From an uncultured Alphaproteobacteria bacterium (GTDB lineage: Bacteria > Pseudomonadota > Alphaproteobacteria > Rs-D84), in the NCBI GenBank assembly GCA_944389185.1, contig CALXLL010000002.1, forward strand, positions 19,004-83,003: a DNA stretch of 64,000 nucleotides. Reading direction: 5' to 3'. A program made the translations under genes and the position numbers. How positions within the stretch are numbered: the first letter of the stretch is position 1; each line of letters begins with the position of its first letter. Positions 18,675 to 20,105 of this stretch are shown one piece after another. Below the pieces are notes generated by a model that saw nothing but the letters and a program-made list of their open reading frames with translations, had not been told where the DNA came from and did not search any database.

Positions 18675-20105
18675 ATGACAAGGTTTTTATCGGAAAATAA
18701 TACTTTTTATCACGGGACTTATAATGATTTTTTAAGATTCAGACCTTTATCTCATTTCGGGTCTATTTATGCTGCAAAATATATTATTAATCTTGGATTA
18801 GGTTATAAAACGGAACCTATCGGTTCTTTGTCTGATATTAAACTAGAAGATGCGATAATTGGTTGTGTTGATGAACGTAAACAAACTGGAAAACCGAAAA
18901 TTATACCGGTAAAACTTAAGCTTAAAAATACTTACGAACTACAAGACGTTGAAGGTTGTCACGATTTATATTTTTATAAGAATGCCTTGCTTTTTCATTT
19001 TATAGATGAATTGAAAAGTTCTGATGTGCCGATGATATACGACTATATAACAGATAAACCGTTGCATAATATGTCTTGGAAAGCGGTTAAAAAAGAGCTT
19101 GCACAAGATACTTTATATGCCGTTAACGGGAAGACAGATGAAGCGACAGATAGATATCATTTAGTATTACAAAGAATGATTCATTATTTTGAAGGGCTTG
19201 GTTTTGATGGCTTTCATTATACGAATAATCATGAAGACCCGGGGCATATTTCTTACGTGCCGTTTCGCCCAGAAAGCATTGTTAGATTAGACGTTTCTTT
19301 ACATGCTGTAAATTACGATTTCAAGCCTGCTGAAAAAATTAATATCAAAGGAACAAGAAATATTTATAGAATAGAAGAAACGTCATTAAGATTTGAAAAG
19401 ATTTATCATATAGAAATGCTTGATAAAAAACACAGTTTATTACAAAATTGCAAAGATATAATGTTACGTCCAAGCTCGTTTAATAGAATTATGGAATCAA
19501 AACTGTATTATTCCAAGCTTTGGTTTCAAGATGTTTTACCAAAGATAGAAAAGATAACAAATCAATCAAGGTATGGTTATCATGGACTATCGCATACGCA
19601 GCAGGTCGTTTTGTTTGGAATAGAGCTGGCGTTGTCCGTTAATCAAGACCCTATGCCTGTATTGTTGGCATGTGCTTTGCACGATTGTGCAAGAACAAAC
19701 GACGAATATTGTGAATTACATGGTCCAAGGTGCGAACCTATTGCACGAAAGTTTTTGTCAGAAAATTATTCTAATATATTTCCTGCGGACCAGGAAAAAA
19801 TTATAGAAGCAGTCAAAAAACATACTGTTGGCAGACAACCAAGCAATTTAATATCGGCTTGTATGTGGGACGCAGACAGAATAAGATTGTCTTGGGAAAT
19901 GGGTTATAGACCAGAGTTTTTTTCAACGTTATACGGCAAAATGTTGGCTGCTTTGGATGAAAAACAACAAAAGAAATACATGCAAAAACAGGAAGATTTT
20001 TTGATTTCTAATGGGCTTCAGACGAAGAAAAAAATAGAAGAGCAAAAGTTCCTAGATGCAAAACAAAATATTTTTGGAACGGTATTTAGTCAAAAAATAA
20101 AATAA
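18675..20105 (+). CDS. two-domain orphan protein: C-terminal HD-domain phosphohydrolase; N-terminal domain of unknown function (possible ART-like fold)
   Basis: HD signature: GYHGLSH(303-306)..LLACALHDCAR(336-337)..ELHG..KKHTVG..MWDADRIRLS. N-terminal motifs FYHGT, SHFGS and GFDGFHYTNNHEDPGHISYVPFRPESI. The C-terminal tail is Lys-rich. Confidence 0.6.
   Translation: MTRFLSENNTFYHGTYNDFLRFRPLSHFGSIYAAKYIINLGLGYKTEPIGSLSDIKLEDAIIGCVDERKQTGKPKIIPVKLKLKNTYELQDVEGCHDLYFYKNALLFHFIDELKSSDVPMIYDYITDKPLHNMSWKAVKKELAQDTLYAVNGKTDEATDRYHLVLQRMIHYFEGLGFDGFHYTNNHEDPGHISYVPFRPESIVRLDVSLHAVNYDFKPAEKINIKGTRNIYRIEETSLRFEKIYHIEMLDKKHSLLQNCKDIMLRPSSFNRIMESKLYYSKLWFQDVLPKIEKITNQSRYGYHGLSHTQQVVLFGIELALSVNQDPMPVLLACALHDCARTNDEYCELHGPRCEPIARKFLSENYSNIFPADQEKIIEAVKKHTVGRQPSNLISACMWDADRIRLSWEMGYRPEFFSTLYGKMLAALDEKQQKKYMQKQEDFLISNGLQTKKKIEEQKFLDAKQNIFGTVFSQKIK

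Follow-up and report, generated by a model that had tools for sequence, protein, structure and literature searches.

What would a single protein chain do that joins an ADP-ribosyltransferase (ART)-like domain to an HD phosphohydrolase? The question is raised by a gene on the forward strand (positions 18675–20105, stop codon included) of a 64,000-nucleotide stretch of contig CALXLL010000002.1 from an uncultured alphaproteobacterium; this whole stretch is called the window below. The open reading frame (ORF) listing gives the gene 476 codons, from an ATG to a TAA. Its product is a two-domain enzyme conserved among uncultured gut Alphaproteobacteria, and both domains are of known kinds, with an ART-PolyVal domain at the amino-terminus and an HD phosphohydrolase domain at the carboxy-terminus. 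By analogy, NAD+-dependent ADP-ribosyl transfer may be coupled in it to cleavage of the ADP-ribose phosphoanhydride by the HD domain, a reading to which we give a probability of about 0.4.

At the 37% G+C of the window, a frame of this length would stay open by chance with a probability of about 3.5e-15; homologues exist and the gene is under purifying selection (see below), so a chance frame or artefact was rejected. A collection of 5.8 billion proteins contains 90 homologues, about 66 of which are full length, 34–93% identical and of the same two-part architecture, and at least 118 places in species-representative genomes encode a relative. An earlier reading of the DNA made without database searches (hereafter the sequence-only reading) had called the protein an orphan; these counts reject that status, as the protein is common, though confined to its lineage. 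Each of the 79 loci examined belongs to a metagenome-assembled genome (MAG) from an animal or human gut sample; the labels are Alphaproteobacteria, Candidatus Enterousia (Alphaproteobacteria incertae sedis in the NCBI taxonomy) or unclassified proteobacteria, and one is binned as Lactobacillales. In public MAG annotation the fusion appears as a "hypothetical" or "HD domain-containing" protein. It is not mentioned in the paper that defines ART-PolyVal (PMC5512222), nor is it described elsewhere in the literature searched; a search for papers on host-lineage biology was likewise unproductive.

The motifs first reported for the protein are invariant or near-invariant columns in a 42-sequence family alignment. 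They comprise FYHGT (residues 11–15), SHFGS (residues 26–30) and GFDGFHYTNNHEDPGHISYVPFRPESI (residues 176–202) in the amino-terminal part, and the HD pair (residues 336–337), H349, H383, D399 and D401 in the carboxy-terminal part, beyond which lies a Lys-rich tail (residues 451–476). The ORF and motif positions of the sequence-only reading are right except in the first histidine pair, which is formed by H303 and H307, residue 306 being a serine.

The N-terminal domain (residues 1–205, positions 18675–19289) belongs, on profile and predicted-fold evidence, to the ART-PolyVal family PF18760, which gives the ART-like domain proposed from sequence a more precise identity. Among the 42 aligned homologues, 29 have a PF18760 hit (E ≤ 0.01), and two of them, P0052 and P0061, score 51.1 and 33.1 bits, both above the 31.2-bit cut-off. 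When a profile of the domain was compared with 1.84 billion representative sequences, 1624 proteins were found at E ≤ 1e-3, of which 383 reach E ≤ 1e-10. Among them are stand-alone proteins of 250–330 residues, proteins of about 520 residues with a C-terminal domain, and giant proteins of 2000–5000 residues with many copies of the domain. Canonical polyvalent-protein ARTs were recovered at E-values of 1e-22 to 1e-40; they score 62–105 bits on PF18760, and one of them also bears the polyvalent-protein domain LPD38. The motifs YHGT, SHFGT, IPVYL and GYDGIVYxNxxEDxGxDSYIVF are common to the canonical members and the window protein. The same profile, compared by sequence with the PDB, gave nothing significant.

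An AlphaFold model of the full-length protein has a mean predicted local distance difference test score (pLDDT) of 88.2 and a predicted template modelling score (pTM) of 0.89. Fold searches with this model were dominated by the HD domain, so a separate model of residues 1–215 was needed (pLDDT 84.4, pTM 0.82). A comparison of the separate model with BFVD gave 24 predicted viral structures at E ≤ 1e-3; several bear the name ART-PolyVal, the best of these with an E-value of 1.7e-9. Among the 24, a Roseobacter phage contributes an N4-like virion RNA polymerase protein, and it is in proteins of this type that the ART-PolyVal family has its prototype (PMC5512222). The sole strong match in the PDB is chain B of the cyanophage A4 pre-ejectosome (PDB entry 9k3a; E 4.3e-5, probability 1.00), followed by diphtheria toxin (probability 0.41) and RES toxins (about 0.12), both of which have ART folds. 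The sequence-only reading had proposed such a fold comparison, naming Tpt1 among the folds to consider; the model is confident, its matches are of the ART-PolyVal and ART-fold kind, and no Tpt1 structure is among the top 50.

Two additions distinguish the modelled domain. The first is a loop formed by residues 41–72 (positions 18795–18890), in which residues 45–69 have a pLDDT below 50 and are predicted to be disordered, with a column conservation of 0.27–0.35. The second is a helical insertion of about 80 residues (residues 98–175, positions 18966–19199) that separates ART-core strands 4 and 5 in the model; in keeping with it, the PF18760 hits in the homologues span 190–245 residues for about 130 model positions.

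The active site had been likened to H-Y-E motifs, but the ART-PolyVal family is of the H-Y-D kind, with a histidine in strand 1, a tyrosine in strand 2 and an aspartate in strand 5 (PMC5512222). The histidine is H13 (positions 18711–18713), located in FYHGT on model strand 11–15 and kept in 98% of the ART-HD members and 100% of the giant polyvalent ARTs. The aspartate is D178 (positions 19206–19208), in an invariant G-x-D-G (G-F-D-G here) directly before strand 179–183, and is kept in 95–100% of all groups. Together with Y182, N184 and E187, these two residues are conserved in 92–100% of the ART-HD members and 85–100% of the polyvalent-protein ARTs. The short SHFG strand, which contains H27, bears the invariant F28. 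The family-defining paper gives no position for the tyrosine (PMC5512222). From the alignment, its best candidate is likely to be the residue following IPV, which in the giant proteins is Tyr (60%), Phe (18%) or His (12%). In the window protein it is Lys80 (positions 18912–18914), and position 80 is non-aromatic in about 77% of the ART-HD members. Of the 66 members, 56 combine a residue other than Tyr or Phe at position 80 (His in six of them) with Tyr87 on the next strand, as part of a clade-specific NTYEL motif; six have Tyr80 and an aliphatic residue at 87, and only one has neither tyrosine. By this covariation, the aromatic residue may have relocated from 80 to 87 with the pocket retained.

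The substitution at position 80 also bears on a different explanation, in which the N-terminal domain would be a pseudo-ART, a non-catalytic sensor of NAD+, ADP-ribose or a partner that controls the HD hydrolase as the sole enzyme. The replaced tyrosine fits this idea, as does the failure of the window protein to reach any Pfam ART threshold. However, H13, D178, Y182, N184 and E187 are as conserved as in the polyvalent-protein ARTs, and the gain of Tyr87 where Tyr80 is lost (56 of 66) suggests that the pocket is kept. We return to this explanation after describing the HD-only relatives.

The C-terminal domain (residues 296–445, positions 19560–20009) is a classical HD phosphohydrolase with a complete set of histidines and aspartates, closest to 2pq7, YedJ and YqeK; the HD hydrolase recognised in the last third of the sequence is thus borne out by Pfam, profile and fold matches. 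The Pfam HD family (PF01966) matches residues 305–402 of the window protein with an E-value of 6.8e-4 and 20.4 bits, under the 22-bit gathering score, and matches 32 of the 42 homologues at E ≤ 0.01, at best with 3.8e-13. A profile of the HD region finds in the PDB 2pq7 (1.1e-8), E. coli YedJ (1.4e-4) and BH1327 (7.6e-4), and then the YqeK-type Ap4A hydrolases. In the fold search with the full-length model, HD hydrolases come first (2pq7, 3gw7, 2pjq, 2ogi and YpgQ), followed by cyclic-nucleotide phosphodiesterases (PDEs), with probabilities of 0.9–1.0; the PDE domain of Legionella SdeD is found at rank 43 with a probability of 0.96 and a template modelling score of about 0.3. Residues H303, H307, H336 and D337 (positions 19680–19685), R340, H349, H383, D399, D401 and R402 are invariant, also when the HD-only relatives are included; H307, H336, D337 and D401 among them make up the H...HD...D metal-ligand motif. 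A ligand pattern of this kind fits a two-metal phosphodiesterase or pyrophosphatase, and is usual in two-metal HD enzymes that cleave phosphodiester or phosphoanhydride bonds of nucleotides. The closest HD relatives of known or proposed activity, YqeK (an Ap4A hydrolase) and YpgQ, work on nucleotide phosphoanhydrides. By tblastn, the only phage relatives are weakly matching HD-only proteins of Vibrio jumbo phages: hypothetical proteins of phages D181, D148, D69 and 1.081.O are 33–35% identical to HD residues 299–425.

The two domains are connected by a helical linker (residues 206–295, positions 19290–19559), which contains two long helices (residues 232–253 and 266–294) and has the lowest conservation of the family alignment. 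The pTM of 0.89 for the whole chain suggests that the predicted arrangement of the domains is fixed. In the mechanism that we propose, the protein would be made in the cytoplasm as a two-domain enzyme, its ART fold presenting H13 on strand 1 and D178 at the start of strand 5, and the linker would pack the ART domain against the HD domain. The ART domain would use NAD+ to put ADP-ribose on a protein, nucleic acid or small-molecule target. The HD domain would then cleave the ADP-ribose pyrophosphate, leaving a phosphoribosyl mark and releasing AMP, or would remove or degrade the product. It is the use of NAD+, the target and the coupling of the two activities that we infer here.

Several observations weigh against this mechanism. 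The window protein itself has no PF18760 match at E ≤ 1 or E ≤ 0.01 (gathering score 31.2 bits), and its residue 80 is Lys instead of the Tyr, Phe or His usual in the family. The only confident match to a solved ART-type structure is a phage ejection protein, with diphtheria toxin at 0.41 and a RES toxin at 0.12. No biochemically characterised ART-PolyVal protein was found in the literature searched, so NAD+ use is an assumption carried over from the superfamily. Finally, ART-only and HD-only relatives exist, so each domain can stand alone and coupling is not required.

The stand-alone forms show how modular the family is. In loci of sister species (L021–L029 and L032), an HD-only gene of about 200–275 codons, located at about 7900–8700 of each locus, adjoins the MarR gene in the region that holds the fusion gene in other species; in L023 the gap to MarR is about 110 bp. 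Their products are 44–54% identical to residues 271–476 of the window protein. The HD-only genes of these loci fall among the ART-HD genes in a crude, midpoint-rooted neighbour-joining tree built on the HD region, a placement which suggests that the ART domain has been gained or lost more than once. The lineage also has a larger family of HD-only paralogues, of about 190, 310 and 480–825 residues. ART-only proteins of the same subfamily exist as well, and one cluster of them is from an alphaproteobacterial MAG.

Selection was analysed by comparing the window gene with the close alleles of L083, L080 and L081 (93%, 86% and 78% protein identity). The ratio of non-synonymous to synonymous substitution rates (dN/dS) is 0.13–0.27 for the ART domain, 0.28–0.39 for the linker, 0.05–0.08 for the HD domain and 0.05–0.09 for the tail (residues 446–476), and both domains are under purifying selection. 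For the loop of residues 41–72 it is 0.6–1.25, a value that is compatible with relaxed constraint, as the loop has only 32 codons. The window allele equals that of L083 over the linker and the HD domain, but differs from it with a dS of 0.31 over the ART part, where its loop 41–72 matches L080; such mosaic alleles suggest recombination within the gene among strains. For the pseudo-ART explanation introduced above, the stronger constraint on the HD domain is a point in favour, and the HD-only orthologues in the same slot, together with the large HD-only paralogue family, would make the HD domain the autonomous core. The existence of ART-only proteins of the same subfamily speaks the other way, and with the conserved ART residues also in mind we consider a non-catalytic ART domain improbable.

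The genomic setting is chromosomal. The window carries gyrA, mraY, a class A penicillin-binding protein gene, plsX, yidC and the genes for CTP synthase, pyruvate kinase and ribosomal protein L1; judged by size and position, rpoB and rpoC are probably also present. The ART-HD gene is located in a slot between two tRNA genes on the reverse strand, both identified with ARAGORN and Rfam: tRNA-Glu(CTC) (positions 18493–18568) at the left border and tRNA-Gln(TTG) (positions 21255–21328) at the right border. On one side follow gyrA and a MerR gene, on the other a MarR gene, a TolC-like gene and a resistance-nodulation-division (RND) efflux pump. The same tRNA-flanked slot holds the gene in L001–L009, L011 and L016. 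Identity to these syntenic orthologues is 41–59% (49–59% apart from L011 and L016), while across the same loci gyrA is 88–96%, MerR 52–65% and the efflux adaptor 44–55% identical. We therefore rejected the notion that the gene evolves exceptionally fast: its divergence is like that of MerR and the efflux adaptor, though far below gyrA in identity, and it is loosely constrained but not exceptional. Retention in the slot with ordinary divergence looks like vertical inheritance.

A single-gene conflict or defence module was considered in view of this slot. On phage infection or stress the ART domain would deplete NAD+ or ADP-ribosylate molecules of the invader or the host, and the HD domain would degrade nucleotides or limit self-damage. 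The tRNA-flanked islet does hold genes that vary between species (NERD nuclease, His_Phos_1 and ORFans), the alleles are mosaic with a fast-evolving loop, the ART domain may have been gained or lost repeatedly, and paralogues stand in tandem in L005. The ART-PolyVal clade is moreover grouped with toxin ARTs (PMC5512222), and RES toxins are among the weak fold matches. On the other side, a search of PADLOC-DB 2.0 gave no match for the window protein, two homologues or the adjacent 220-residue ORF product, and a known defence system was rejected on this ground. The gene occupies the same chromosomal slot in at least 11 species with a divergence like that of MerR and the efflux adaptor, a vertical pattern rather than the patchy one of defence genes, and no sensor or partner gene accompanies it. 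Among 50,697 phage and 72,556 plasmid records, none matches the protein over its full length. All in all, a defence role seems unlikely to us. The phage and plasmid searches, with only the weak HD-only matches in Vibrio jumbo phages, also led us to reject a phage or plasmid origin of the fusion. Unlike the ARTs of phage or conjugative-element polyvalent proteins, the ART domain here is part of a two-domain chromosomal gene in a syntenic slot.

No neighbour or operon partner is conserved, and the companions in the slot vary among loci: in the window they are flavodoxin-like and coiled-coil proteins, elsewhere His_Phos_1, NERD and PQ-loop proteins and ORFans. The sequence-only reading had allowed for a role of the neighbouring gene. 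This is a convergent ORF of 220 codons (positions 20116–20778, reverse strand), a near-ORFan with four homologues among the 5.8 billion proteins and no family match. It is found beside the ART-HD gene only in the closest relatives: it adjoins the gene in L082 and L083, and a partial ORF is at the same position in L081. None of the 24 more divergent full-length loci has it beside the ART-HD gene, and an immunity or partner function was rejected for this reason. The ART-HD gene itself looks monocistronic, since it has its own upstream signals and is followed by an inverted repeat before the convergent ORF. The upstream signals (positions 18623–18670, forward strand) are a promoter-like TTGACA and TAAAGT with a 17-nucleotide spacing (18623–18651) and an AAGAGGG ribosome-binding site 5' of the ATG, found by consensus scan and inspection of the sequence, a pattern match only. 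The inverted repeat (positions 20095–20131) is a perfect 15-bp repeat found by inverted-repeat and terminator scans, which would form a bidirectional terminator-like hairpin between the convergent genes.

Other features of the slot were noted. Genes for small histidine phosphatases (His_Phos_1) are beside the ART-HD gene in L004, L005, L007 (two copies), L009 and L013, and about 4.5 kb away in L020. Such genes are nearby in six loci only and in the window not at all. Their proximity may reflect a loose tie in function with phosphoribosyl or nucleotide products. In L005, the tandem ART-HD paralogues (positions 5971–7341 and 8001–9446 of that locus; 42% and 51% identical to the window protein) have a His_Phos_1 gene between them. 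Across tRNA-Glu from the ART-HD gene, positions 17814–18404 (reverse strand) encode a coiled-coil protein with an N-terminal membrane segment and no family match, which recurs at the same position in L002, L006 and L011. At the other border, 2.4 copies of a 172-nucleotide tandem repeat with 99% identity (positions 20856–21268) adjoin the 3' end of tRNA-Gln. Every unit holds a copy of the final 14 nucleotides of the tRNA together with a terminator-like hairpin, and one unit has a folding energy of –61 kcal/mol (z –2.7). The repeat belongs to no Rfam family and an exact-word search of the other loci found none; similar sequence is present, as spurious ORFs, by tRNA-Gln in L003, L004, L006, L008, L009 and L012. 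The repeat may have been left behind by integration events that recurred at the tRNA, or it may be an array of small RNAs.

The position between two tRNA genes, seen in many species, also brings RNA-end repair to mind: an NAD+-dependent removal of 2'-phosphates as by Tpt1/KptA, with the HD domain acting, like that of bacterial CCA-adding enzymes, as a phosphatase or a 2',3'-cyclic phosphodiesterase. Low in the fold list there is indeed a tRNA-processing enzyme complex (3wfr), and the family-specific invariant residues R167, R198 and R204 would suit phosphate binding. Yet tRNA genes commonly border variable regions, no RNA ligase or kinase gene is nearby, Pfam gave no hit to the Tpt1/KptA family (PTS_2-RNA), the 50 best fold matches include no Tpt1 structure, and the domain is in the H-Y-D clade, not in the Tpt1 clade (PMC5512222). 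We consider RNA-end repair a very improbable function.

At the carboxy-terminus, the protein ends in a helix (residues 451–468 in the model) and a basic tail (together residues 446–476, positions 20010–20102; terminal residues QKIK). The sequence-only reading had judged this tail compatible with a substrate of a type IV secretion system (T4SS), and such a role of the tail may hold: a basic carboxy-terminus is enriched in the family and virB8, virB9 and virB10 genes are present in the window, but the signal is not specific. A terminal Lys or Arg is present in 75% of the family versus 32% of 687 background ORFs, at least two Lys or Arg among the last three residues in 62% versus 18%, and the last 20 residues carry on average a net charge of +2.3 versus +0.7; as the family members are related, these counts are not independent. 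Tail length and sequence vary across the family. The T4SS genes, all on the reverse strand, are virB8 (positions 48112–48840), virB9/CagX with a SPOR domain (46554–48098) and virB10/TrbI (44075–46528). They are 24 kb from the ART-HD gene, between yidC and the ribosomal-protein/rpoBC region, and are conserved in related genomes, including L062 and L067. The window showed no gene for virB11, virD4 or a coupling protein; with virB11 and virD4 not adjacent to virB8–virB10, the system appears to be a chromosomal, split T4SS.

These data raise the possibility that the protein is an effector, exported by the chromosomal VirB-type T4SS with the basic carboxy-terminus as signal and acting in a gut eukaryote or a competing bacterium. 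Besides the conserved virB genes and the charge of the tail, which is under purifying selection in the close relatives, export of this kind would agree with the lack of a Sec signal (strand 1 begins at residue 11), with the ART-PolyVal domains being typically delivered effectors (PMC5512222), and with L062, L067 and L070, in which a few kb separate the virB genes from an HD-only paralogue. Basic carboxy-termini are, however, not specific to T4SS substrates, and the enrichment comes from related proteins; neither virB11 nor virD4 nor any coupling-protein gene was seen in the window, and DNA transfer may be what the T4SS is for. The lack of a conserved immunity gene next to the ART-HD gene goes against an interbacterial toxin, and the hosts are uncultured and of little-known lifestyle. 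We regard export as rather unlikely. It is compatible with ADP-ribosyl transfer followed by HD cleavage, since it concerns the site of action only.

If the HD domain does process the ART product, the protein would be a second, independent case of combined ADP-ribosylation and phosphodiester cleavage, so far known from the SidE effectors of Legionella. Among the protein-modifying modules predicted in phage and plasmid polyvalent proteins, ART-PolyVal domains have been described as the most frequent, and a chromosomal, well-folding version of 476 residues with one clear partner is an easier entry to their biochemistry than polyvalent proteins of 2000–5000 residues. The protein also marks a lineage-specific, expanding HD family with ART-HD, HD-only and longer HD forms, in a widespread group of uncultured animal-gut Alphaproteobacteria that has T4SS genes and whose biology is barely known.

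Compared with ART-PolyVal (PF18760, in the Tox-ART-HYD2 clade; PMC5512222), the N-terminal domain has the motifs YHGT, SHFG(S/T), IPVxL and G(Y/F)DGxxYxNxxEDxGxxSYxxFxP, the common fold, and profile homology to the ARTs of giant phage and conjugative-element polyvalent proteins. It differs in being part of a chromosomal, vertically inherited two-domain protein of 476 residues outside polyvalent proteins, phages and plasmids, and in Lys80 for the usual Tyr, the clade-specific NTYEL motif and the HD fusion. The best solved-structure match to this domain, gp28 of cyanophage A4 (9k3a chain B), is a virion protein of 1071 residues with lytic transglycosylase and M23 peptidase domains and no HD domain. 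The A4 structure paper leaves the C-terminal alpha+beta domain of gp28 unnamed; this is probably the part that matches the ART-like domain, and if so, a solved ART-PolyVal-like structure exists unannotated. The C-terminal domain is like 2pq7, YedJ and YqeK in its H...HD...H...H...D ligand pattern and all-helical fold, and these are its best profile and fold matches. Identity is only 17–21%, however, and the YGYHGL, LHDCART and WDADRIRLSWE motifs and the fused ART are extra here; 2pq7 and YedJ are themselves without an assigned substrate. The DarT-DarG and RES-Xre systems, of which the RES toxins are weak fold matches to the N-terminal domain, likewise pair an ART-fold activity with a function that could undo or limit it. 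In them, toxin and antitoxin are encoded by two genes, the antitoxin being a macrodomain or Xre protein, while ART-HD is one polypeptide with an HD domain and no conserved partner gene.

The nearest characterised parallel to the pairing is found in the SidE effectors. The sequence-only reading knew of no characterised system combining an ART-like module with an HD hydrolase, but SidE proteins do combine a mono-ADP-ribosyltransferase (mART) with a PDE domain that "resembles classical HD domains" (PMC6941232). The mART ADP-ribosylates ubiquitin, the PDE domain, with a catalytic H-E-H triad (H277, E340 and H407 of SdeA), then converts the product to a phosphoribosyl link, and the PDE-only proteins DupA and DupB reverse this (PMC6941232). 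As in SidE, one chain joins an ADP-ribosyltransferase and an HD-like PDE, and the PDE-only relatives of SidE parallel the ART-HD and HD-only forms of the same genomic slot. The differences lie in the parts. The SidE mART is of the R-S-E type, while the present ART is of the H..D type in the ART-PolyVal family; the SidE PDE works through the H-E-H triad and a histidine intermediate, while the present HD domain keeps the full set of metal ligands. The order of the domains is reversed, no sequence homology was detected, and the ubiquitin target has no obvious counterpart here. A full SidE-like two-step chemistry that arose independently outside Legionella, with an H-Y-D ART followed by an HD domain of the same chain leaving or transferring a phosphoribosyl mark, with HD-only orthologues as erasers and possible export by the VirB-type T4SS, appears quite improbable to us. 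By this comparison the chemistry proposed for the protein resembles that of SidE in logic and not in ancestry, the two having built on unrelated versions of both domains.

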